A DNA stretch of 64,000 nucleotides from Escherichia coli. Lineage in GTDB: Bacteria > Pseudomonadota > Gammaproteobacteria > Enterobacterales > Enterobacteriaceae. The stretch's first letter is position 1. The number at the start of each line of letters is the position of its first letter. The notes under the pieces are model-generated. The model was not told where the DNA came from and did not search any database. It was given only the letters and a program-made list of their open reading frames with translations. Made by a program: the position numbers and the translations under genes. The stretch is taken from NCBI RefSeq assembly GCF_001677475.2, contig NZ_CP015229.1; one strand, given 5' to 3'. Below, piece after piece: positions 25,800 to 47,583 of this stretch.

Positions 25800-26654
25800 A
25801 TGTTGTCCAAACAAATCCCGCTTGGCATCTATGAAAAAGCGCTCCCCGCCGGGGAGTACTGGCTGGAACGGCTGCAACTGGCAAAAACGTTAGGCTTCGA
25901 TTTTGTCGAGATGTCGGTAGATGAAACGGACGATCGCCTGTCGCGCCTCGACTGGAGCCGCGAGCAGCGTCTGGCGCTGGTGAATGCGATTGTTGAAACC
26001 GGCGTGCGCGTGCCGTCCATGTGCCTTTCTGCTCATCGTCGTTTCCCGCTGGGCAGCGAAGATGACGCGGTACGGGCGCAGGGGCTGGAGATTATGCGTA
26101 AAGCTATCCAGTTCGCCCAGGACGTTGGCATTCGCGTAATCCAACTGGCGGGCTATGACGTTTACTATCAGGAAGCCAATAACGAAACGCGTCGTCGTTT
26201 CCGTGACGGCCTGAAAGAGAGCGTTGAGATGGCAAGCCGTGCGCAGGTGACGCTGGCAATGGAGATCATGGATTATCCATTGATGAACTCCATCAGCAAG
26301 GCGCTGGGCTATGCGCACTATCTCAACAACCCGTGGTTCCAGCTCTATCCGGATATCGGCAACCTGTCGGCGTGGGACAACGACGTGCAGATGGAATTGC
26401 AGGCCGGAATTGGGCATATCGTCGCGGTGCATGTGAAAGACACCAAACCAGGCGTCTTCAAAAATGTGCCATTTGGCGAAGGCGTAGTGGATTTCGAACG
26501 TTGCTTCGAAACGCTCAAACAGAGTGGCTATTGCGGGCCGTACCTGATTGAGATGTGGAGCGAAACGGCGGAAGACCCGGCGGCAGAAGTGGCGAAAGCG
26601 CGTGATTGGGTGAAAGCGCGCATGGCGAAAGCGGGCATGGGGGAGGCGGCATAA
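25800..26654 (+). CDS. ulaE: L-ribulose-5-phosphate 3-epimerase
   Basis: 284-aa TIM-barrel ORF. Confidence 0.9.
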
Positions 26655-27949: not shown

Positions 27950-28466
<517 letters not shown>

Positions 28467-29048: not shown

Positions 29049-29510
<462 letters not shown>

Positions 29511-29533
29511 TTCGTTATTCAACGAGACGTAAA

Positions 29534-29570
29534 AACGCCGACCACTGGTCGGCGTTTTGCTTTCTATTTT
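29534..29570. terminator. Bidirectional rho-independent terminator (rplI / yjfZ)
   Basis: AACGCCGACC-actg-GGTCGGCGTT flanked by A-run on the left and T-rich tract on the right. Confidence 0.65.
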
Positions 29571-29580
29571 TCGTCAGGTA

Positions 29581-30375
29581 TTAGTTTCGCAAGTAGATCC
29601 ATTCACCATTCTCTTGTGTCCATAATTCAGGATGGTTTGCTGGCGTTAGATGCATACGATCACTCCTTATGTCTCGGTCCTGCGGCACTCGCTCGAAACC
29701 CAAACCCGAGTAGATTGCTGCTGAACTTGATAAGGAACGCAGACCAATTTTCAAATCATGGGGTAAATCAGAATACGCGTTTAGCAATGCAGCAATGATG
29801 AATCCGAGGGCATTAGAAACGCCTGTAACAGTGCGAAGTTGGTCGATATAAAGATCGATTGTTGGTAGTTCAGATGACCAGCAATTAGGCATTTGGGCAG
29901 GAAGGGTTACAACGTATCCTATCGTTTGGCCGGTATAGTCTGGAGTACCATAACCTGGACCCAAAACAACCTCGTGTATTGTGTATTTACTGTTGGGTTC
30001 GAAGGATTCGACATCTTGCAATAAATATTTCAGTTCTGCGGTTAACCTCGCACCCGCGTAAGCTTTATTGTATTTCTGGGCGTGAATATTATCTAATGTA
30101 GCTTCATGGTTCCATCCAAAAGAATTATCACCATTCATTGTTATTCCATCGTAAGCATTACACCTCGTCGCTAACTTATTGAATGCTTGCCAGCCTGAGA
30201 GATCTAGTTTGTGGATCTCAACAGTATGTCTGCCATCGCAATTATGGTCTCTTCCACGATTTGAAAGTAATGTAGCGCGTGCGTATTGATGAAATTTTAA
30301 TTTTACTGGTTTGTCGGTGGACGAAAAACGGGGTGAATATGCAGGAAATGAATAAATAGTGGTTGGTAATGTCAT
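29581..30375 (-). CDS. yjfZ: uncharacterized protein YjfZ
   Basis: 264-aa ORF convergent with rplI, matching K-12 position and length from memory; no motif recognised. Confidence 0.6.
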   Translation of the reverse strand: MTLPTTIYSFPAYSPRFSSTDKPVKLKFHQYARATLLSNRGRDHNCDGRHTVEIHKLDLSGWQAFNKLATRCNAYDGITMNGDNSFGWNHEATLDNIHAQKYNKAYAGARLTAELKYLLQDVESFEPNSKYTIHEVVLGPGYGTPDYTGQTIGYVVTLPAQMPNCWSSELPTIDLYIDQLRTVTGVSNALGFIIAALLNAYSDLPHDLKIGLRSLSSSAAIYSGLGFERVPQDRDIRSDRMHLTPANHPELWTQENGEWIYLRN

Positions 30376-30645
30376 TGTATCGTTGCCTGTTTAATGTTTT
30401 TATAAATATCTCAGCTGAATGTTTACAGAATAAAGAATCGATATTAATAAAAATAAGTTTGTTTTCTGAAGTAGTGAAAATAGCGGATGGTGAAAGATAT
30501 TAATATCAAAAATCGCTCATTGTGGATATAACGATGCAGCAGGGAGGGGGGATATGATTGACAACGCGTTGGTAAGCGAGGTTCGATAACTCAAGCTTCT
30601 TTAAAAACGCCATAACCTCAATTATAGCGTTTTTATTTAAAATAA

Positions 30646-31923
30646 TTAGTGGGTAGCTAACTGTACTTGTGGTTCTTCATCTTTAACTTTGATAAGCGTC
30701 CACAACGCAATAGCACCAATAATGTCAAAGAAAGCCAGGGCAATAAAGAACGGCGCGAAGCCGATAATGTGAACGAATGCCCCGATGAACAGGTTGAAAA
30801 TCAACTGACCGCTCCACGCACAGGCTCCTGCCATACCCACTGCGGTAGCTACTTCGTCCTTTTTGAACAGATCGCCACCCAGAGTTGCTGCTACAGTAGA
30901 AAGACATTGATGCGAGAACGCGCCAATACTAATCAGTAATACGGCAATGTAGGGATTTTCGACAATACTCACCAGACCAATCGTCATCATAATGACGGCT
31001 GCAATAGTGAAGGTAATTCTTCGTGAGTTAATTAAACTCACGCCGCGATCGTGGAAGAACTTCGCGACAAAACCACTGGCTAAACAGCCGAGATCGCCCA
31101 GCAGGAAAGGCAGCCAGACGAACATGGCAATTTCTTTCAGGCTAAAATGCAGCGTTTCGACGAAGAAAATCGGCACCCAGAAGTTAATGGTTCCCCATGC
31201 CGGGTCTGCGAGAAAACGCGCGATGCCAATCCCCCAGAAATTACGTTGGCTGAGGATATGCTTGATTGACGTTTTTTCTTTCTTATCTGTTTTAAGATGC
31301 TGTTCTTGCCCTGATTCAATATAGTGGCGCTCTTCATCAGAAAGGCGTTTGGCATCTTTCGGATCTTTATAACAAAAGAACCAAAATAAAGCCGCGAGCA
31401 AAGCAAGGCTACCTGAAACAATAAACGCAAATTGCCAGCTATGAAACATAATGCACCAGGCAATCAACGGTGGAGCAAGCATCGCGCCGAGTGAGGTGCC
31501 CATATTGAAAACACCTGTCGCCACGCCACGCTCTTTTGCCGGAAACCATGTTGATGCGGTTTTTACACCTGCCGGAATTGCCGACGCTTCGCTGAAACCC
31601 ATCAGGGCGCGCATAAATGCCAGACCTGACCATGTTCCGGTTAGTGCATGGCCCATTGTCGCCAGGCCCCAAATTGCGGCACATATCGCAAAACTTAACT
31701 TCAGACCTACGGTATCAATAAAGAAGCCCATTACCGGTTGCCCTAATGTATAGGCCAACTGGAATGCACTGACAATCCATGAATATTGTTCTTTGGTTAT
31801 TCCGGTTGTCTCCATAATCGTTGGAGCCGCAATACCTAACGCCGTTCTGTCCAGATAATTGATTACAGTGATAAAGCATACGAGGGCAATCATATGCCAT
31901 CGATAATTCTTTATTTTATTCAT
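30646..31923 (-). CDS. MFS transporter, anion:cation symporter (ACS) type (hexuronate/galactonate/tartrate-permease-like)
   Basis: 425 aa, about 12 hydrophobic segments, N-terminal INYLDRTALGIAAP motif; AAGG SD 7 nt upstream. Confidence 0.75.
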   Translation of the reverse strand: MNKIKNYRWHMIALVCFITVINYLDRTALGIAAPTIMETTGITKEQYSWIVSAFQLAYTLGQPVMGFFIDTVGLKLSFAICAAIWGLATMGHALTGTWSGLAFMRALMGFSEASAIPAGVKTASTWFPAKERGVATGVFNMGTSLGAMLAPPLIAWCIMFHSWQFAFIVSGSLALLAALFWFFCYKDPKDAKRLSDEERHYIESGQEQHLKTDKKEKTSIKHILSQRNFWGIGIARFLADPAWGTINFWVPIFFVETLHFSLKEIAMFVWLPFLLGDLGCLASGFVAKFFHDRGVSLINSRRITFTIAAVIMMTIGLVSIVENPYIAVLLISIGAFSHQCLSTVAATLGGDLFKKDEVATAVGMAGACAWSGQLIFNLFIGAFVHIIGFAPFFIALAFFDIIGAIALWTLIKVKDEEPQVQLATH

Positions 31924-32015
31924 TTTTAAACCTTTTAATTATATTAATAAACCCTGGTTGTTGGTATTTCCATGTAATAGGCAATAAAAATCAGGTACAG
32001 AGAAAATATTGAAAA

Positions 32016-34088
32016 TTATTGTGTGTAAATGTCTCCCTTTAAAAAGTCTGGCCAGTTTTTTTCAAAGTAAATACCGTTAATACACGGTTGCATACGTAAA
32101 GACTTTACTTCGGTAATAAAAGAACCTTGCGAATATTGAATTGTTAATTTGTGATTTTTATCTTCAGCGAGTTCAGAGCGAAAACGCCATTCTTCTTTTA
32201 CGCCGCGACGAGTTTGTGGTAGGCATTTGCCTTGTGGATCAATAACCATCCGCGCCCCACGACTGCCGCCACCAGCATCAATATAATGCGTTAATTGTGT
32301 TAATACCGCGGCAGAAGTCAGCGCCATATGCCGCCACATAAACAGCTCGGAAACTTCACCCACATGTTTGATTGCCAATCCATGCCGTTGGACAAATTCG
32401 TTCAATAGCAGGGCATCGCGAGTGGCGCGTCGGACTTTATCGGCATGGCAAATAAATCCCGCATAGTCAGACATTCGTGCCTGAATTTTTTCTCTCACAA
32501 CCGACAACGGCATCCCGGTCCCGTTATCGTGCGCCTGAGTAATGATCTCTCTTATAGAAGCCAGTGCCGGAGCTGCCAGCTGTGCTATATCTCCATCAAT
32601 ATTCCGCTTTTGCGTGCAACCAATAAAACGTGCCAGACGCACGGCAAAAACCTGCCCGGCATTCAATGCCGCACCACCAGGGCGAGTGACGCCGTGTGTG
32701 CCAGCAACTTCCCCCACTGCAAAACAACCGGGCAGAGATGTTTGTCCCCAGATATCCACTTCAATGCCGCCATTCATATGCTGATTATTCATGGCAAACT
32801 GCAATGGCTGCGTGGTGAGATCGTAACCGTGCATCTTATACAGCGAGATAGACAGCGGATTCATTCGTTGCAGTCGTTCGATGGGCGATGGCGCCAGGGC
32901 GTCGTTATTTTCCAGATACGCGCGAACGTCGTCGTCCAGTCGTTCTAATGAGAATGGCAGGTCACCCGGCACAGGTTCAGGATTGCGATTGAAATCCATA
33001 AATACCTGACGCCCTGATTGCTGCTCTTGCGCCACCGCCATATCTAACAAGCTGGAGCCAAAATCCATTACCCGCGTGGCGTGGAACGGCCACTGATAGC
33101 CTTTACGGAAGATGTTTGAAGCCAGCTCCTGGGTGGTGCGATAGTAATCTGCGAGGAAGTTATACTCGTTGCCCTCGGCATCCACGGAATAGATATATGG
33201 GATCACTTGTACATAGGTGCCGGACAAATTCCACGGAAACGTGCTGCGCGGCGTGCCTATACCAAACTGGCTTTCGGTCAGATTAGTTAGTGTCAGGCCT
33301 TCCTCCAGCGCCAGCCCCAGCGAGCCAAAACATTTGTGTGGGTACACACTGTCGCGATAAAGCTCGCCCGGCCCGCCTGTTGCCAGTACCACATTGGGCG
33401 CAGTCACAATTGCCAGCCCCCACGGGTTATGGGCGCGGGAACCGGTTGCGAGGATAGCCCCGGCCACACGATCTTCGCCGTTTTCACCGCGTTGATGCAG
33501 CAGTTTAATCACCGTTGCACTGGTCAACAGTGGGATGGCGAGGCGCTGCACTTCTTCGAGCAATACTTTCACCATCAGACGAGAAGTGCGCGGCCCACAG
33601 GAGGTTGCGCGTCCGGCTTCGTCATGGTCGGTCTGATAACGGAGAATTGCACCATAGCGATCTTCCGGTAATTCCAGACCGAGATATTGCAGCCCGCCAA
33701 GGGTATGTAGGGAACCGACCGCTTCGACATACGCCGTGTCGTGATCCATCGCACCGCCGCTCGCCAGTGCTTCAGCAAGTTTTGCGAAGTTATCGCCGTT
33801 GCCCGCCGTTGCGGCGGTAAACAGCGTCTGTTTATCGGAACCGGAGCAGGCCGATGTTCCCATGTATAACCCGGCGGTGGCGATTAGCACATTTTGCTGG
33901 CGACGTTTCAGTTCAACCGCCGCACGTAATCCTGCCGCGCCGCTACCAACGACCAGAGCATCTGTTTGCCAGAGCGGGTAATCAACACCGTCCACCGTGA
34001 CAATTGACGTTGGCTCTGCTGACACAAAACCCTTCGGGAAAGTGACGTGCGTCAGCGCATCGAGGATGGCGTCATCAGTCTGGCTCAT
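32016..34088 (-). CDS. FAD-dependent oxidoreductase, fumarate-reductase/succinate-dehydrogenase flavoprotein-like, with extra C-terminal region
   Basis: 690 aa; N-terminal dinucleotide fold VVGSGAAGLRAAVEL; start overlaps upstream gene stop (ATGA). Confidence 0.7.
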   Translation of the reverse strand: MSQTDDAILDALTHVTFPKGFVSAEPTSIVTVDGVDYPLWQTDALVVGSGAAGLRAAVELKRRQQNVLIATAGLYMGTSACSGSDKQTLFTAATAGNGDNFAKLAEALASGGAMDHDTAYVEAVGSLHTLGGLQYLGLELPEDRYGAILRYQTDHDEAGRATSCGPRTSRLMVKVLLEEVQRLAIPLLTSATVIKLLHQRGENGEDRVAGAILATGSRAHNPWGLAIVTAPNVVLATGGPGELYRDSVYPHKCFGSLGLALEEGLTLTNLTESQFGIGTPRSTFPWNLSGTYVQVIPYIYSVDAEGNEYNFLADYYRTTQELASNIFRKGYQWPFHATRVMDFGSSLLDMAVAQEQQSGRQVFMDFNRNPEPVPGDLPFSLERLDDDVRAYLENNDALAPSPIERLQRMNPLSISLYKMHGYDLTTQPLQFAMNNQHMNGGIEVDIWGQTSLPGCFAVGEVAGTHGVTRPGGAALNAGQVFAVRLARFIGCTQKRNIDGDIAQLAAPALASIREIITQAHDNGTGMPLSVVREKIQARMSDYAGFICHADKVRRATRDALLLNEFVQRHGLAIKHVGEVSELFMWRHMALTSAAVLTQLTHYIDAGGGSRGARMVIDPQGKCLPQTRRGVKEEWRFRSELAEDKNHKLTIQYSQGSFITEVKSLRMQPCINGIYFEKNWPDFLKGDIYTQ

Positions 34089-35626
34089 GCGTCCTCCATT
34101 GGCGTAAACAGGCTACTTTCCATCAGGCGCGGCTGGTTGATAATTGGACGGAAAGCCATGAACGGCAGAATGTCGCGGTCAATCTCCACGCCCGGCGCGA
34201 TTTCAATTAATTCAACGCCTTCTGCCGTTAACTGAAACACCGCGCGTTCAGTGATATACAACACTTCCTGACCGCTGTGCTGTGCGTAGGCGGCGCTAAA
34301 AGTGATTTTTTCCACCTGAGTAACCAGTTTAGGGATTTGACCTGACTGGGCGATATGCAAGCCATCTGGCGTTACATCAATCTTGCTGCCTTTGGCGTCG
34401 AACGTGCCGCAGAACACCACCTTACGGGCGTTTTGCGCAATTTCGAGAAATCCGCCGGGGCCAATCAGATTGCCATTGAGATGGGAGACGTTGACGTTAC
34501 CGTACTGATCCATCTCTCCCATGCCGAGGAAGGTGATATCGATCCCTCCGCCACTGTAGAACTCAAATTGATCGAGTGATGGAATAATGGCATCGGCGTT
34601 GCGGGCGCAGCCGAAAAACGCATCATCCAGCATCATACCGTTATGCACGCCTTGCTCGACGCTCAGCCATAAACTTTGGTAAGGCACGCCTTCGCGCAGC
34701 GCTACTCCTGGAATGCCGCCGGGAATACCAAAGCCAAAGTTGGTTGAAGCGCCAGCTACCAGTTCGCGTGCTGCCCGACGGGCAATCAGGCGACGTACCG
34801 GATGACTAACCAGTTCAATAGCGTCGTTAGAACTCAGACGGCGATGTTGGCCGCTGATGGTCAGGTCGTAACCGCCAAGATAGGTTTGTGGCTGTTCGCG
34901 GTGTTCAACGATGCCATCAACCAGAATGCCCGGTAATTTGACTCGGCGTGGTTCAATCGCGCCAGCTTCCAGCACATCGCGTACCTGTACAAACACTTTG
35001 CCGCCGCTGTTGTGTGCTGCCAGCGCCATGGAATAGCTATCCATATCAATCGCTTCTTCTTCAAGGCTGACGTTGCCCCGAGGATCGGCATAAGTGCCAC
35101 GCAAAATCGCGTAATCGACTTTGAAAGGGCGATAACGAAGTTTGGTTTCACCGTCGATTTCAATCAGTTCTACCAGGTCGTCGGTAGTGCATTCATTCGA
35201 CTTACCGCCGCCATTGCGTGGATCAACAAACGATCCCAGCCCAACGTGGGTAAAAAGCCCCGGACGTCCGGCGCCGATCTCCCGTAGCAGTGCCTGAATC
35301 ACGCCACCAGGAAAACAATAGGCTTCAATCGCGTTATTTTTTACCAGCGCCTGCATTTTGGGTGACCAGGTAAAGTGTCCGGCAATAATGCGTTTGAGCA
35401 TTTCAGCATGAGCGAAGCGGTTCGTGCCTTTGCAGTCGCGATCGCCAATGCCCAGCGAGTGGATTAATGTCAGATCGCGCGGGTGTCCGGTTTGCAGGAA
35501 GCGCGCTTCAATGGCTGCCAGAATATGGTCGGCTTCCACCATGCCGCCGCCGTTACCGCTAATGGCAATGGTTGCGCCATCCTGAATTTGCGCCGCCAGT
35601 GCCTCGGCGGTTGTTATCTTACGCAT
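34085..35626 (-). CDS. CoA-transferase, family I-like (YdiF/propionate-CoA-transferase-like)
   Basis: 513 aa; overall resemblance to two-domain family I CoA-transferases; assignment by eye, needs HMM confirmation. Confidence 0.6.
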   Translation of the reverse strand: MRKITTAEALAAQIQDGATIAISGNGGGMVEADHILAAIEARFLQTGHPRDLTLIHSLGIGDRDCKGTNRFAHAEMLKRIIAGHFTWSPKMQALVKNNAIEAYCFPGGVIQALLREIGAGRPGLFTHVGLGSFVDPRNGGGKSNECTTDDLVELIEIDGETKLRYRPFKVDYAILRGTYADPRGNVSLEEEAIDMDSYSMALAAHNSGGKVFVQVRDVLEAGAIEPRRVKLPGILVDGIVEHREQPQTYLGGYDLTISGQHRRLSSNDAIELVSHPVRRLIARRAARELVAGASTNFGFGIPGGIPGVALREGVPYQSLWLSVEQGVHNGMMLDDAFFGCARNADAIIPSLDQFEFYSGGGIDITFLGMGEMDQYGNVNVSHLNGNLIGPGGFLEIAQNARKVVFCGTFDAKGSKIDVTPDGLHIAQSGQIPKLVTQVEKITFSAAYAQHSGQEVLYITERAVFQLTAEGVELIEIAPGVEIDRDILPFMAFRPIINQPRLMESSLFTPMEDA

Positions 35627-35635
35627 ACAATTTCC

Positions 35636-36412
35636 TTAGTGATTATGGAAGCTCACGCTACTTTTTTCGGCAAATGCCTGCGTCGCCTGCTGGCAATCCT
35701 GAGTGGCGGACATTAATCCAGCCAGTAACTGGTGTGGGTATTCAGCGTGTTTATTTTCCAGTGCCAGAATCAGCTGCTTAATATGCGCCAGTGCCACCGG
35801 ACCACATTTTTCCAGCTGCGCTAACTGGTTCGCCATCCAGCTTTCCACCTGTTCTTTTTCTACTACTTCATCAATTAAATTCGCCGCCTGGGCTTCATGC
35901 GCCGTCAGACGTTTACCTAGCATCAGCATCTGGCGACCGACCACTGGGCCGACCTGATTAATCACGCGTTCAATGCCCATCCAGCCAGGCACCATGCCGA
36001 GCATGACTTCCGGGTTAGAAAATTTCGCGCTGGGGCGAGCGATTCGAATATCGCAGCACAAGGCAAGTTCAATACCGCCGCCGATGGTATGACCGTTGAG
36101 ATTCGCAACCGTTAATTGCGGTAAATTGCGCAGGCGATTAAAAACGTCATTGCCGCGTTTAATCCATTTTCTGCCCATATCTAATGGCGAATAGGCCGAC
36201 CACGATTTAATATCACCGCCCGCACAAAAGAATTTATCGCCGATTGCCGTTAATTCGACTAATCGTAATGTGGTGTCGTTTTCAATTTCATTTAAATAAT
36301 GGTCGAGAGATTCAATCATCTCTTCGTTAATAGCATGACATTTCTCTTCACGGTTCAACGTCAGGCGGCAGGAAGCCGCCGCTCTGCTGAACAGAACGGG
36401 TTGGTCACTCAT
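35636..36412 (-). CDS. enoyl-CoA hydratase/isomerase (crotonase fold)
   Basis: 258 aa; crotonase signatures FCAGGDIKSW and GGGIELALCCD, plus PE motif (SNPEVMLGMVPG). Confidence 0.8.
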   Translation of the reverse strand: MSDQPVLFSRAAASCRLTLNREEKCHAINEEMIESLDHYLNEIENDTTLRLVELTAIGDKFFCAGGDIKSWSAYSPLDMGRKWIKRGNDVFNRLRNLPQLTVANLNGHTIGGGIELALCCDIRIARPSAKFSNPEVMLGMVPGWMGIERVINQVGPVVGRQMLMLGKRLTAHEAQAANLIDEVVEKEQVESWMANQLAQLEKCGPVALAHIKQLILALENKHAEYPHQLLAGLMSATQDCQQATQAFAEKSSVSFHNH

Positions 36413-36421
36413 GATTATTCC

Positions 36422-37264
36422 TTAGCAATAATTCGCGATGCGATCGACGCTAATATCCAGCGTGTTGTTAATATCTTTCTGCCACCAGTACGGTGAGAAT
36501 ATTTCCAGTTCAATAGCGCCATTAAATCCGGCGTTTTCAACCAGTCGACGAATTGACGGAATATTTATCACGCCATCTCCCGGCATTCCCCGGTCATTGA
36601 CCAGATCGGTGGTCGGCACTAACCAGTCGGAAACATGAAACGCGAGAATACGTTTTCCGGCGCGCAGGAGCTGGCTGGCCAGATCCGGATCCCACCAGAC
36701 ATGGTAAACATCCACAGCCACGCCGAGGCCAAATTCGCCATCGGGATCGAGTTCATCACACCAGTCCAGCGCCTGGCGTAACGTGCACAGGCAAGAGCGA
36801 TCGGCGGCGGTCATTGGGTGCAGTGGCTCCAGCGCAATCGGCACGCCAACGTCTTTCGAATGTGGCAGTAACTGGCGTATCCCTTGTTTCACCTGTTCCC
36901 GTGCTTCATACAGATCTTTTGTGCCCTGCGGTAACCCGCCAACCACCTGCATATAACAGGCGGCGTTCAGCACCGCTGCGTCGTCCAGCGCCCGGCGGTT
37001 ATCATCAATTGCCAGTTTGCGTTCCGCCAGCGTCGGCGCGGTGTAGTAGGTGCTACGGCATAAACCGGAAACGCGCATGTTATTGACGGCAAGCTGGCGG
37101 GCGATCTGCTGAAGATCTTCACCCTGCAACTCTCTGCGCCAGGGGGCGATCGCACCGATACCGCGTGCGGCACAGGCATCAATAATGGCGGGTAGCGGCG
37201 TTTTATAGCCCAGTGTTGCGGTATTGATACTGAATAAATCCGGGCGTTGTAACAGATCTCTCAT
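36422..37264 (-). CDS. xylose-isomerase-like TIM-barrel protein (sugar phosphate isomerase/epimerase or dehydratase family)
   Basis: 280 aa; resemblance to AP-endonuclease-2/xylose-isomerase-like TIM barrels by eye; needs HMM confirmation. Confidence 0.55.
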   Translation of the reverse strand: MRDLLQRPDLFSINTATLGYKTPLPAIIDACAARGIGAIAPWRRELQGEDLQQIARQLAVNNMRVSGLCRSTYYTAPTLAERKLAIDDNRRALDDAAVLNAACYMQVVGGLPQGTKDLYEAREQVKQGIRQLLPHSKDVGVPIALEPLHPMTAADRSCLCTLRQALDWCDELDPDGEFGLGVAVDVYHVWWDPDLASQLLRAGKRILAFHVSDWLVPTTDLVNDRGMPGDGVINIPSIRRLVENAGFNGAIELEIFSPYWWQKDINNTLDISVDRIANYC

Positions 37265-37273
37265 GATTCAGCC

Positions 37274-38065
37274 TCAGAAGCGCGGCATACTTAAGCCGCC
37301 GTCGATGGCGACCGCCTGACCACAGGTGTAAATCAGTTTACCTTCCGCCATCGCGCGGACGGTGGAGGCAATATCAGCCGGATAACCCCAACGTCCCCAC
37401 GGCACCAGACCTTTGGCAATCAGTTCGTCGTAATAAGCCGTTGCTGGAATAGTCATATCGGTTTTGATGAGACCAGGGCGCACTTCATAGACGCCAATTT
37501 GTTCGTTGCAAAGGCGAGCAGCAAACAGACGAGCAGCGGCAGAAACGGCGGTTTTGGCAATTGTGTATTCGCCGCGATTCATCGCCAGCATGATGGCGTT
37601 GATGGAACTGACAAAAATAATTGAGCGGTGCGGGAATTCTGTTTCTGGTTTTGGCTGTGCGAGCAGACGTTTACTGAATGCCTGTGCAAGGAAGAACGGT
37701 GCGCGGGTGTTAATGGCAATATTTTGGTCGAAGCTGTCTGGTTCCAGGTCGAGAAGGTCACCGCGTTTTTTCACTGAAATGCCTGCGTTGTTGAGCAGGC
37801 AGTCCAGACGTCCCCACTGGTTTTGCGCTGCGTCGAGCATCTCTTCATGCAGGGAGAGATCGCCAACATCGGCAGGGAAGCAAATCACTTCCACGCCTTC
37901 CGCCAGACATTCTTGTTGTGTGACATGTAATTTTTCAACGCTATCGGCATCCGGACGATCATTAATCAGCAGATTAAATCCGCCACGCGCAAGCTCCAGC
38001 GCACAGCCCTTTCCAATACCACGAGCGGCTCCGGTAATCACGGCAACAGGACGAGTGGATTTCAT
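37274..38065 (-). CDS. short-chain dehydrogenase/reductase (SDR)
   Basis: 263 aa; TGAARGIGKG cofactor motif, NNAG, catalytic Ser and YxxxK (YTIAK). Confidence 0.85.
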   Translation of the reverse strand: MKSTRPVAVITGAARGIGKGCALELARGGFNLLINDRPDADSVEKLHVTQQECLAEGVEVICFPADVGDLSLHEEMLDAAQNQWGRLDCLLNNAGISVKKRGDLLDLEPDSFDQNIAINTRAPFFLAQAFSKRLLAQPKPETEFPHRSIIFVSSINAIMLAMNRGEYTIAKTAVSAAARLFAARLCNEQIGVYEVRPGLIKTDMTIPATAYYDELIAKGLVPWGRWGYPADIASTVRAMAEGKLIYTCGQAVAIDGGLSMPRF

Positions 38066-38133
38066 ACAATAGCTCTCTTTTTTTGAATTTTGTTTCCTTA
38101 GTGATGATTAGCTTGCGACTGGAGGATAAAAAG

Positions 38134-38155
38134 ATCAACCATCTAGTTGGTTGAT
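38134..38155. promoter_or_regulatory. candidate TetR-family operator (perfect 8-6-8 palindrome)
   Basis: ATCAACCA-tctagt-TGGTTGAT in the 212-bp divergent intergenic region between the SDR operon and the TetR gene. Confidence 0.45.
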
Positions 38156-38277
38156 ATGCGATGACGATCACAGGACATTTGATAACCTGATGAAAGTACA
38201 AGTTTTTGCCCTTTTTTCTGAAGCTGAAATCAAATCAGGTTATGATAGTCACCACGAAGAGGTCGTGGGGAAGCGTT

Positions 38278-38925
38278 ATGTATATTGATACCAGCAACGT
38301 ACAGAGCCTGAAGGAAAAGCTGCTGTTATGCGCGGTTAATGAATTTGCCGAATATGGTTATGAAGGGGCCAGGGTCGATAATATTGTTAAGTCTGCGGGG
38401 TGTAGTAAACAGACGGTTTATCACCACTTTGGTAATAAAGAAAATTTATTTATTGAAGTACTGGAATATACCTGGAACGATATTCGAAAAAAAGAAAAGG
38501 CCCTTGATTTCTCAGATCTTCCGCCACAAAAAGCCATTGAGAAAATTATTGATTTTACATGGGATTATTATATTGCTAATCCCTGGTTTTTAAAAATTGT
38601 GCATAGTGAAAATCAAAGTAAAGGTGTGCATTATGCAAAATCACAGCGTCTCTTAGAAATTAACCATGCGCACTTGCAGTTAATGGAATCCTTATTGGAG
38701 GAAGGGAAGAAACACAATATTTTTAAGCCAGATATCGACCCATTGCAGGTGAATATTAATATTGCTGCGCTTGGGGGATATTATTTGATCAACCAGCATA
38801 CGCTTGGCCTGGTTTATCACATCAGTATGGTTTCACCCCAGGCACTGGAAGCCAGACGTAAGGTCATCAAAGAGACGCTCCTTAGCTGGCTTTTGGTTGA
38901 CCCCTCATCTACCGCGCACGAATAA
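38278..38925 (+). CDS. TetR/AcrR-family transcriptional regulator
   Basis: 215 aa from ATG 38278 (GGGGAAG SD upstream); N-terminal [31 protein letters not shown]; track ORF is N-extended. Confidence 0.8.
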
Positions 38926-47394: not shown

Positions 47395-47583
47395 CAGGGA
47401 CATCCTTTTATCATCGGGAATACGAAAGAAAAGGGAGAATAAACGTCTTACTTATAGAACAGTGAAGAATGCCACAATTTTACGCTTTGAAAATGATGAC
47501 ACTATCACAGTTGGCGCATTCATTAACGATAGGGTATAAGTAAAACAATAAGTTAACACCGCTCACAGAGACGAGGTGGAGAA

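Follow-up and report, generated by a model that had tools for sequence, protein, structure and literature searches.

A likely separate transcription unit: yjfZ, an Escherichia-restricted gene beside an accessory operon, and its possibly GNAT-like product

We analyzed a stretch of 64,000 nucleotides from Escherichia coli (contig NZ_CP015229.1 of assembly GCF_001677475.2, hereafter the window), with a focus on the gene yjfZ, the AT-rich spacer upstream of it, and the accessory operon next to it. The surrounding chromosome shares 99.6% identity with strain ChlosBP-23-1 and 97% with K-12, and the gene order is ula operon, yjfY, rpsF-priB-rpsR-rplI, yjfZ, an accessory operon of six genes and a TetR gene diverging from it, ytfB, fklB, and cycA (Table 1). 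Names of the operon genes were taken from the annotation of the 99.6% identical genome, with the coordinate offset checked against ytfB. An open reading frame (ORF) of 264 amino acids, starting with ATG and convergent with rplI, is found exactly where the initial annotation had placed it, and the name yjfZ is equally sound, as the region shares 97.3% identity with K-12 b4204 and carries the annotation yjfZ in all matching genomes. This is a known E. coli gene, for which name, Pfam family, and rplI terminator are already annotated, and the variation at its locus is ordinary accessory-genome structure.

Across 5,426 complete E. coli genomes, yjfZ and the operon are present or absent independently of each other. 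The gene was detected in 2,538 genomes (47%, i.e., absent from 53%), with at least 80% of its length covered in 2,523 of them, and the major facilitator superfamily (MFS) gene that ends the operon was detected in 1,692. The two stood side by side in only about 287 genomes (~5%), so that yjfZ showed no co-inheritance with the operon, each being found alone, yjfZ in K-12 and the operon in E. coli B. By subtraction, about 1,400 genomes carry the operon without yjfZ, and about 1,480 carry neither yjfZ nor the MFS gene; the latter may be of a type with a tripartite ATP-independent periplasmic (TRAP) transporter. Overall, four types of locus were distinguished between rplI and ytfB: yjfZ plus operon, as in the window; yjfZ plus the pseudogene ytfA, with the operon absent, as in K-12; the operon directly after rplI, with yjfZ absent, as in E. 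coli B; and a variant in which a TRAP transporter replaces the MFS gene and yjfZ is absent. In KBN10P04869 (L004 5223-8067), a three-gene TRAP transporter comes straight after rplI and is followed by an oxidoreductase dependent on flavin adenine dinucleotide (FAD), inside which the stretch ends.

The spacer between yjfZ and the MFS gene is itself a composite, of which 30376-30544 travels with yjfZ and 30545-30645 with the operon. Its yjfZ-proximal 160-195 bp were found in 2,519 genomes and the whole spacer in 287, and six yjfZ alleles from different contexts were nearly invariant over the 165 nt before the ATG and differed in everything beyond. Homology to K-12 runs from rplI through yjfZ to position 30544, is followed by 102 bp left over from the ketoacyl-reductase gene (37875-37976, 78% identity), and resumes at 38523 in the TetR gene; in E. 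coli B, 42 unrelated bp replace window positions 29567-30642. The breaks at 30544/37875 and 37976/38523 make K-12 a derivative of two deletions, having lost 30545-37874 and 37977-38522. The window thus shows the ancestral and complete arrangement from which that of K-12 is derived. By the same alignment, K-12 ytfA (L002 6141-6649 region) represents the 3' portion of the TetR gene. In other strains, the insertion sequence (IS) IS609 (tnpA and insQ/TnpB) is inserted in the TetR remnant.

Both ends of yjfZ are marked by hairpins. The 70-bp gap between rplI and yjfZ holds one perfect inverted repeat of 13+13 nt, 22 nt from the end of the yjfZ ORF, which folds strongly whichever strand is read, at −23.1 kcal/mol (z −5.5) for plus and −22.1 kcal/mol (z −4.6) for minus; none of 200 shuffles folded as stably on either strand. 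In the terminator sequence AAAAACGCCGACCACTGGTCGGCGTTTTG (29531-29559), the G+C-rich hairpin lies between an A-run and a T-run, and the U-run that consequently follows on each strand makes a bidirectional reading reasonable. The hairpin is unchanged in genomes without yjfZ, which suggests that it is primarily the terminator of rplI and is also used by yjfZ. A predicted bidirectional Rho-independent terminator common to both genes, as proposed from the start, is therefore well matched by its stable fold on both strands. The claim that the spacer also contains the hairpin terminating the MFS gene was likewise borne out: two 14-nt arms, about 10 nt past the MFS stop, fold at −15.6 kcal/mol (z −3.8) and lead into UUUUU. 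A simple terminator scan did not list this second hairpin, since the scan stretches the stem into the U-run, and Rfam showed no family in the spacer, its only matches being sub-threshold and terminator-like, at the rplI hairpin. The 10-mer TAAAAACGCC is common to the left arms of the rplI (29530-29539) and MFS (30602-30611) terminators, a short direct repeat that brackets the yjfZ segment. Besides the rplI hairpin, E. coli B has a second one of diverged sequence by the MFS gene, so the indel is not accounted for by this repeat, which is probably a chance match.

The 270-bp gap between the MFS gene and yjfZ thus contains a hairpin, a U-run, and a stretch to which RNA polymerase binds in K-12 (see below). 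The initial annotation had left the relationship between yjfZ and the operon open. Comparative genomics favors independence: separate occurrence, a composite spacer, an operon terminator upstream, and binding of the RpoD holoenzyme to the K-12 spacer all argue for yjfZ as an independent unit.

The spacer was described initially as a very AT-rich region of 270 bp, and both its length (30376-30645) and composition are confirmed: GC content is 32.6%, compared to 51.2% for the whole window, which places it in the lowest 1.2% of 270-bp windows. The most AT-rich stretch of the window, more extreme than this spacer, lies at 48253-48653 (minimum 25.9% GC per 270 bp). H-NS nucleates at the motif tCGATAAATT, to which TCGATATTAA at about 30438-30447 is a near match. 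In K-12, genomic SELEX (systematic evolution of ligands by exponential enrichment) mapped two in vitro binding sites to the yjfZ/ytfA spacer, one for H-NS and one for the RpoD holoenzyme alone (PMC3946193), and a FlhDC SELEX site or peak has been reported near yjfZ (PMC9962212). The segment 30376-30544 presumably holds both the yjfZ promoter and the H-NS target. The promoter hexamers given for yjfZ in PMC3946193 (TTGATT-15-GATCAT) are the same as in the yjfY row above; they were not seen on reading the spacer, where no formal search for them was made, and they were not used.

The same segment contains an 18-nt element, Box 1, that yjfZ has in common with its paralogue yjiC. A copy of Box 1 with one mismatch lies 171 nt upstream of the K-12 yjiC ATG, and one with a further change lies upstream of yjiC in E. 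albertii; none of 1,000 shuffles reached this match, and the remaining upstream regions of yjfZ and yjiC have diverged. This suggests that Box 1 may be a regulatory site kept by both paralogues since the duplication. The palindrome GATATTAATATC, which overlaps it, and the partial copy GATATTAATAAAAATAA were invariant in the six alleles. The yjiC/iraD spacer has been reported as an H-NS-bound promoter island (PMC3661553), and an 11-fold induction by AZT that does not depend on LexA has been described for yjiC, there labelled "biofilm" (PMC11228462). In this strain, yjfZ may be silenced by H-NS.

Table 1 Features of the yjfZ locus and the adjoining accessory operon in the window
Feature	Position	Strand	Basis or remark
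rplI (ribosomal protein L9)	29061-29510	+	ORF, annotation, identical protein across genomes; last gene of rpsF-priB-rpsR-rplI, convergent with yjfZ
rplI/yjfZ hairpin, predicted intrinsic terminator readable on both strands	29532-29558		folding, repeat scan
yjfZ coding sequence, Pfam DUF2686 (YjfZ/YjiC family)	29581-30375	-	ORF, Pfam, identity; GC 42.4%
Predicted GNAT-like core, residues about 48-245	29641-30234	-	beta1, alpha1, inserted hairpin, alpha2, beta2-beta4, alpha3, beta5, alpha4, beta6
yjfZ-linked 5' region	30376-30544	-	169 bp, 30.2% GC; kept beside yjfZ whatever adjoins upstream
Candidate -10 TATAAA, with TAAACA 15 nt upstream	30399-30404	-	direct reading and relaxed scan; weak; 24-29 nt before ATG
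Partial copy GATATTAATAAAAATAA, related to palindrome GATATTAATATC	30440-30456		56 bp from the palindrome
Second weak candidate promoter TTCAGA-18-TAATAT	30470-30441	-	relaxed scan
Perfect palindrome GATATTAATATC	30496-30507		overlaps Box 1
Box 1, AATGAGCGATTTTTGATA, candidate regulatory site	30504-30521	-	146 nt upstream of yjfZ ATG; common to yjiC upstream regions
Operon-linked distal spacer	30545-30645	-	absent from K-12-type genomes
MFS-gene hairpin and U-run, predicted accessory-operon terminator	30602-30635	-	folding; 14-nt arms 93% complementary
MFS transporter	30646-31923	-	last accessory-operon gene, outside the yjfZ unit
FAD oxidoreductase	32016-34088	-	accessory operon
Coenzyme A (CoA) transferase	34085-35626	-	accessory operon
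Enoyl-CoA hydratase	35636-36412	-	accessory operon
Sugar-phosphate isomerase	36422-37264	-	accessory operon
Ketoacyl reductase	37274-38065	-	accessory operon
Divergent TetR gene	38278-38925	+	

The selection acting on yjfZ is purifying but relaxed. All seven alleles sampled from diverse strains keep the 264-codon frame, and their pairwise ratios of non-synonymous to synonymous substitution rates (dN/dS) lie between 0.12 and 0.34 (pooled 0.25), except for one pair at 0.59 that differs at only three sites. When the window was compared with K-12, dN/dS was 0.26 for yjfZ vs 0-0.075 for ula, yjfY, ytfB, fklB, cycA, and ytfE; the value of 0.29 for priB comes from one synonymous and one non-synonymous difference only. 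Such relaxed purifying selection fits a dispensable accessory gene. In strain MSB1_4I (L023 1088-2434, 3608-4885), IS4 lies between the rplI terminator and yjfZ and the MFS gene has an internal stop, an example of ongoing decay of the locus.

At the protein level, YjfZ matched Pfam DUF2686 (PF10887) at 503.3 bits (E 1.9e-151; gathering score 25 bits), with residues 5-264 on profile positions 17-285. The family consists of two paralogues, YjfZ and YjiC (276 amino acids), and DUF2686 was matched by all 16 aligned relatives, for which no other Pfam family was found even at E up to 10. For YjfZ itself, NCBIfam, PADLOC, PHROGs, and PDB sequences (phmmer and profile) gave no match, and Pfam gave DUF2686 only. 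The early description of a protein without recognisable motifs thus stands for functional motifs and falls for family membership, and the fold is probably GNAT-like, i.e., related to Gcn5-type N-acetyltransferases (see below).

The gene is restricted to Escherichia and Shigella. When 5.8 billion proteins were searched by word index and 1.84 billion representatives were scanned exhaustively with HMMER, every match to the family came from Escherichia or Shigella, bar two giant repeat proteins (P0025 and P0028, the latter of BspA-type leucine-rich repeats), which were rejected as repeat or low-complexity artefacts. In 100,044 species genomes (one per species), only two loci were detected. One is in E. 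albertii, adjoins uxuR, uxuB, uxuA, and gntP, and from ORF sizes and order relative to K-12 appears to occupy the yjiC position. The other is a 1,283-bp contig of a "Collinsella sp." metagenome-assembled genome (JAIJJM010000835.1, L005), rejected because its yjfZ is 98% identical to that of E. coli and almost certainly represents bin contamination. No relatives of yjfZ were matched in a phage search, and the "plasmid" matches were all non-mobilizable and 0.37-4.9 Mb in size, several of them carrying chromosomal gene names; we read these as mislabelled chromosomal sequence. A mobile-element origin was accordingly rejected, given the lack of phage matches, the chromosomal look of the plasmid records, and the lack of flanking repeats beyond the 10-nt match.

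Judged from the family alignment, YjfZ resembles a GNAT acetyltransferase in its C-terminal half (...IDLYIDQLRTVTGVSNALGFIIAALLNAY...IGLRSL...AAIYSGLGFERV). Structure prediction, which the initial annotation had proposed, pointed the same way in one model, albeit at low confidence. AlphaFold2 (AF2) was rerun for residues 36-264 after removal of frameshifted sequences and of the first 35 residues, and the best of the five models reached a predicted local distance difference test score (pLDDT) of 53.8 and a predicted template modeling score (pTM) of 0.51. Its elements follow the order beta, alpha, hairpin, alpha, beta, beta, beta, alpha, beta, alpha, beta, which is the GNAT order of strands and helices. 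In a poorer full-length model, GNATs were already top among the alpha/beta matches. The best model combines the GNAT core topology with 3-D similarity to GNATs, scoring 8.5 over 142 residues with BH2621 (2qml), 7.8 with SidF, 7.5 with a bacterial acetyltransferase toxin (7byy), 7.5 and 7.1 with AAC(6') enzymes, 7.4 with NcdE, 6.9 with both LasI and AtaT, 6.7 with Gcn5, 6.5 with TacT3, 6.4 with RimJ, and 6.1 with RimL. Residues 1-45 are rich in Ser, Thr, and Pro and are of low confidence in the model. Residues 1-25 of both YjfZ (30301-30375) and YjiC are Ser/Thr/Pro/Asn-rich, contain no acidic residues (MTLPTTIYSFPAYSPRFSST... and MSMPLSNALQSQIITD...), and are unstructured in AlphaFold; they recall, only as a lead, type III secretion signals, a lead to which the FlhDC peak reported near yjfZ may be added.

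Profile comparison gave a faint signal in the same register. Using hhalign, 12 clean family members were compared with an alignment of 11 K-12 GNATs (ElaA, RimI, RimJ, RimL, SpeG, PhnO, YjaB, YhhY, YjgM, YpeA, and YhbS), a profile that was built from K-12 paralogues because ElaA searches had yielded no diverse one: an ElaA-seeded protein search brought up nothing beyond close relatives of 77% identity or more, and a viral scan for ElaA relatives returned none. DUF2686 scored 24.2 over 76 columns (P 0.007, probability 5.5%), with YjfZ 149-230 placed on GNAT beta3 to alpha4, including the "..Y..lGFe" motif, and aligned in register with the AF2 elements. This score was reached by none of 200 column shuffles and none of 200 block shuffles (maximum 21.3), nor by any of 139 non-GNAT decoys run against the same GNAT profile (maximum 23.6). 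Against a single GNAT (ElaA), hhalign returned nothing. The most conserved stretch of the family is the T182-S187 loop, with an invariant central Gly and non-canonical first and last positions. Its most distinctive motif, R40-G-x-x-H-N-x-D-G48, precedes the core and is without a GNAT counterpart. In the literature searched, DUF2686 was mentioned by a single paper, and we found none tying it to acetyltransferases.

Taking the model and the profile match into account, a GNAT-like fold is the best-supported reading for YjfZ, and we consider it probable. YjfZ would then be a very divergent new member of the GNAT fold, placed within it by the fold seen in a moderate-confidence model and outside it by sequence. 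Any acyltransferase activity, and its substrate, are speculative.

Combining these results, we propose that yjfZ is a monocistronic, Escherichia-only gene that stands outside the operon, has its own control region, bound by H-NS in K-12, and encodes a product with a divergent GNAT fold, a joint reading to which we give slightly better than even chances. Transcription of the accessory operon would stop at the MFS hairpin, yjfZ would be transcribed from its own promoter somewhere within 30376-30544, and the yjfZ transcript would end at the hairpin common with rplI. Since the K-12 region binds both sigma-70 holoenzyme and H-NS in vitro, yjfZ is probably kept mostly off through H-NS and switched on by some signal, which may act via the 18-nt box common to yjfZ and yjiC. 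The protein would most likely consist of a disordered N-terminus rich in Ser, Thr, and Pro followed by the very divergent GNAT fold, and its likeliest activity, on speculation, would be to move an acyl group from acyl-CoA onto an amine of some substrate.

Several observations weigh against parts of this proposal. A strict sigma-70 scan of the spacer gave no site. The stem of the predicted MFS terminator is A/U-rich with three G-C pairs only, and since the two units are co-directional, partial read-through into yjfZ may occur in strains of this locus type. The absence of yjfZ from 53% of complete genomes and its faster evolution relative to its neighbors imply that any function is dispensable. 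As for the fold, only one of the five AF2 models exceeded a pLDDT of 39, with an alignment of about five clades. The hhalign probability was only 5.5%, and the score of 24.2 is below every true-GNAT control (28-99 for left-out true GNATs and 45 for an ElaA family alignment). As a single sequence, YjfZ aligned out of register, and its single-sequence ranking in a mini-database of 150 proteins was uninformative. The curated Pfam GNAT models (Acetyltransf_1, _7, _8, _10, and others) matched none of the 16 members at E up to 10, and no GNAT was matched among PDB sequences. At the position of motif A, the pyrophosphate-binding loop that GNATs have between beta4 and alpha3, YjfZ reads T182-V-T-G185-V-S187 rather than Q/R-x-x-G-x-G/A. 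In RimI, the catalytic residues are Glu103 and Tyr115; at the aligned positions, YjfZ carries Arg and Tyr, and YjiC carries Glu and His.

These points leave room for other explanations, of which the strongest concerns the protein. YjfZ may be real but no acyltransferase, either because it is a GNAT-like scaffold devoid of catalysis, with a binding role of a regulatory or biofilm-like kind, or because AlphaFold forced a different fold into this shape. The low model confidence, the missing canonical motif A, candidate catalytic residues that differ between the paralogues, and the hhalign probability of 5.5% all favor this view, as do the position of the most conserved motif (R-G-x-x-H-N-x-D-G, residues 40-48) outside the GNAT core and, for yjiC, the "biofilm" label and the 11-fold, LexA-independent induction by AZT (PMC11228462). 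We nonetheless regard it as rather unlikely. The element order of the best model, its 3-D similarities, and the shuffle and decoy controls point to GNATs. The opposite extension, namely that DUF2686 is an unrecognised, Escherichia-confined family of GNAT-fold acyltransferases whose paralogues share the 18-nt box and stay H-NS-silent until a stress signal arrives (for yjiC, one paper reports the 11-fold induction under replication inhibition), is tentative, and we think it less likely than not. If true, E. coli would have a lineage-specific, conditionally expressed activity acylating proteins or metabolites that annotation pipelines have missed, with the disordered N-terminus and RGxxHNxDG motif conferring specificity for a new substrate or partner.

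With regard to the genomic context, yjfZ might instead be the functional last gene of the operon, read through the weak MFS hairpin, with a product in the same CoA-dependent pathway. It does lie on the same strand directly downstream of the operon, in an arrangement ancestral to that of K-12, behind an A/U-rich hairpin of three G-C pairs that a strict scan missed, and the CoA transferase and enoyl-CoA hydratase of the operon would suit an acyl-CoA-dependent transferase thematically. However, the operon adjoins only about 287 of the 2,538 copies of yjfZ, about 1,400 operon genomes lack the gene, and the yjfZ ORF and its 165 upstream nucleotides are intact after deletion of the operon; moreover, the paralogue yjiC has the same upstream box in an unrelated context (uxuR/iraD), and the K-12 spacer binds RNA polymerase alone. 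Membership in the operon is thus improbable in our view, and we give similarly little credence to the idea that yjfZ is a decaying, functionless relic, a silenced yjiC duplicate on its way out of the species. That idea would account for its absence from 53% of genomes, a dN/dS several-fold above most flanking genes, low GC and H-NS binding of the spacer in K-12, the many truncated fragments in protein databases, and the IS elements around yjfZ in some strains. It is hard to reconcile with 2,523 of 2,538 occurrences covering at least 80% of the gene, with full 264-codon frames in seven of seven sampled alleles at a dN/dS of 0.25, clearly below 1, and with an upstream region conserved beyond neutral expectation.

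As yjfZ is a catalogued K-12 y-gene, the reading of an independent gene with a possible GNAT-like product carries little weight in itself and will not surprise a specialist. The GNAT-fold prediction is a modest addition that offers a testable handle, acyl-CoA binding, on a family labelled "domain of unknown function", and setting yjfZ outside the operon prevents a wrong annotation by guilt-by-association. Comparison of the locus types also identifies the K-12 ytfA pseudogene and the adjacent 102 bp as leftovers of a TetR-regulated catabolic operon of 8 kb, which the window carries intact. For users of species markers, yjfZ is no universal signature, being present in only 47% of genomes, and the published "YjfZ" quantitative PCR assay for water quality targets yjiC. 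The primers and probe of that assay, published as specific for E. coli (PMC11057252), had no match to yjfZ in the window or in K-12 even with three mismatches, and the probe translates to TSALDEIYGG, a YjiC sequence, and matches annotated yjiC (K-12 L024 4991-5821) in 4,399 of the 5,426 genomes.

Elsewhere in the window, a 92-bp gap of ~27% GC (31924-32015) separates the FAD oxidoreductase and MFS genes, the other operon genes abutting or overlapping; an internal promoter or a site regulating the transporter may lie there. ulaE (25800-26654) is intact in the window, with 284 codons, and is annotated in ChlosBP-23-1 (L001 8399-9253), 99.6% identical otherwise, as a pseudogene interrupted by a stop codon. 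Rfam matches above gathering score were an RpsF leader (27989-28073) and the RNAs ES239 (small RNA (sRNA), 47395-47517), STnc450 (sRNA, 52089-52146, minus strand), and naRNA4 (63672-63749).

Compared with known systems, YjfZ is like members of the GNAT superfamily in its predicted fold only, with BH2621 (2qml), SidF (7qf6), NcdE, the MbtK-like and DfoC siderophore N-acyltransferases, AAC(6'), and the tRNA-acetylating toxins AtaT, TacT, and 7byy as the nearest structures. It differs from them in a larger domain (~200 amino acids), an inserted alpha1-alpha2 hairpin, and a 45-residue N-terminal extension with its own RGxxHNxDG motif. Unlike siderophore N-acyltransferases, yjfZ has no siderophore genes nearby, and unlike the GNAT toxin-antitoxin modules TacAT, AtaRT, and KacAT, it has no antitoxin-like gene upstream, so that its likeness to tRNA-acetylating toxins is at the level of the fold only. 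The closest relative is YjiC (b4325), which is 42% identical to YjfZ over residues 40-262 and also matches DUF2686 over its full length. Both are encoded by single genes of ~40% GC with a very AT-rich upstream region containing the same 18-nt box, and the K-12 spacer of each has been reported as H-NS bound. However, yjiC sits between uxuR and iraD and yjfZ between rplI and ytfB, the yjiC probe sequence is found in 4,399 genomes vs 2,538 for yjfZ, yjiC has an E. albertii orthologue while yjfZ was not detected outside E. coli and Shigella, and the N-terminal 40 residues differ, including an 8-residue indel. Finally, yjfZ shares features with low-GC genes under xenogeneic silencing by H-NS: a gene of 42% GC with a promoter region of 30-33% in surroundings of 51%, a patchy distribution within the species, and a K-12 spacer that binds H-NS in vitro. 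Unlike silenced imports, it is without a mobile-element context, phage or plasmid relatives, or flanking repeats beyond the 10-nt chance match, and yjfZ appears to stem from an old duplication within the genus and not from a recent import.

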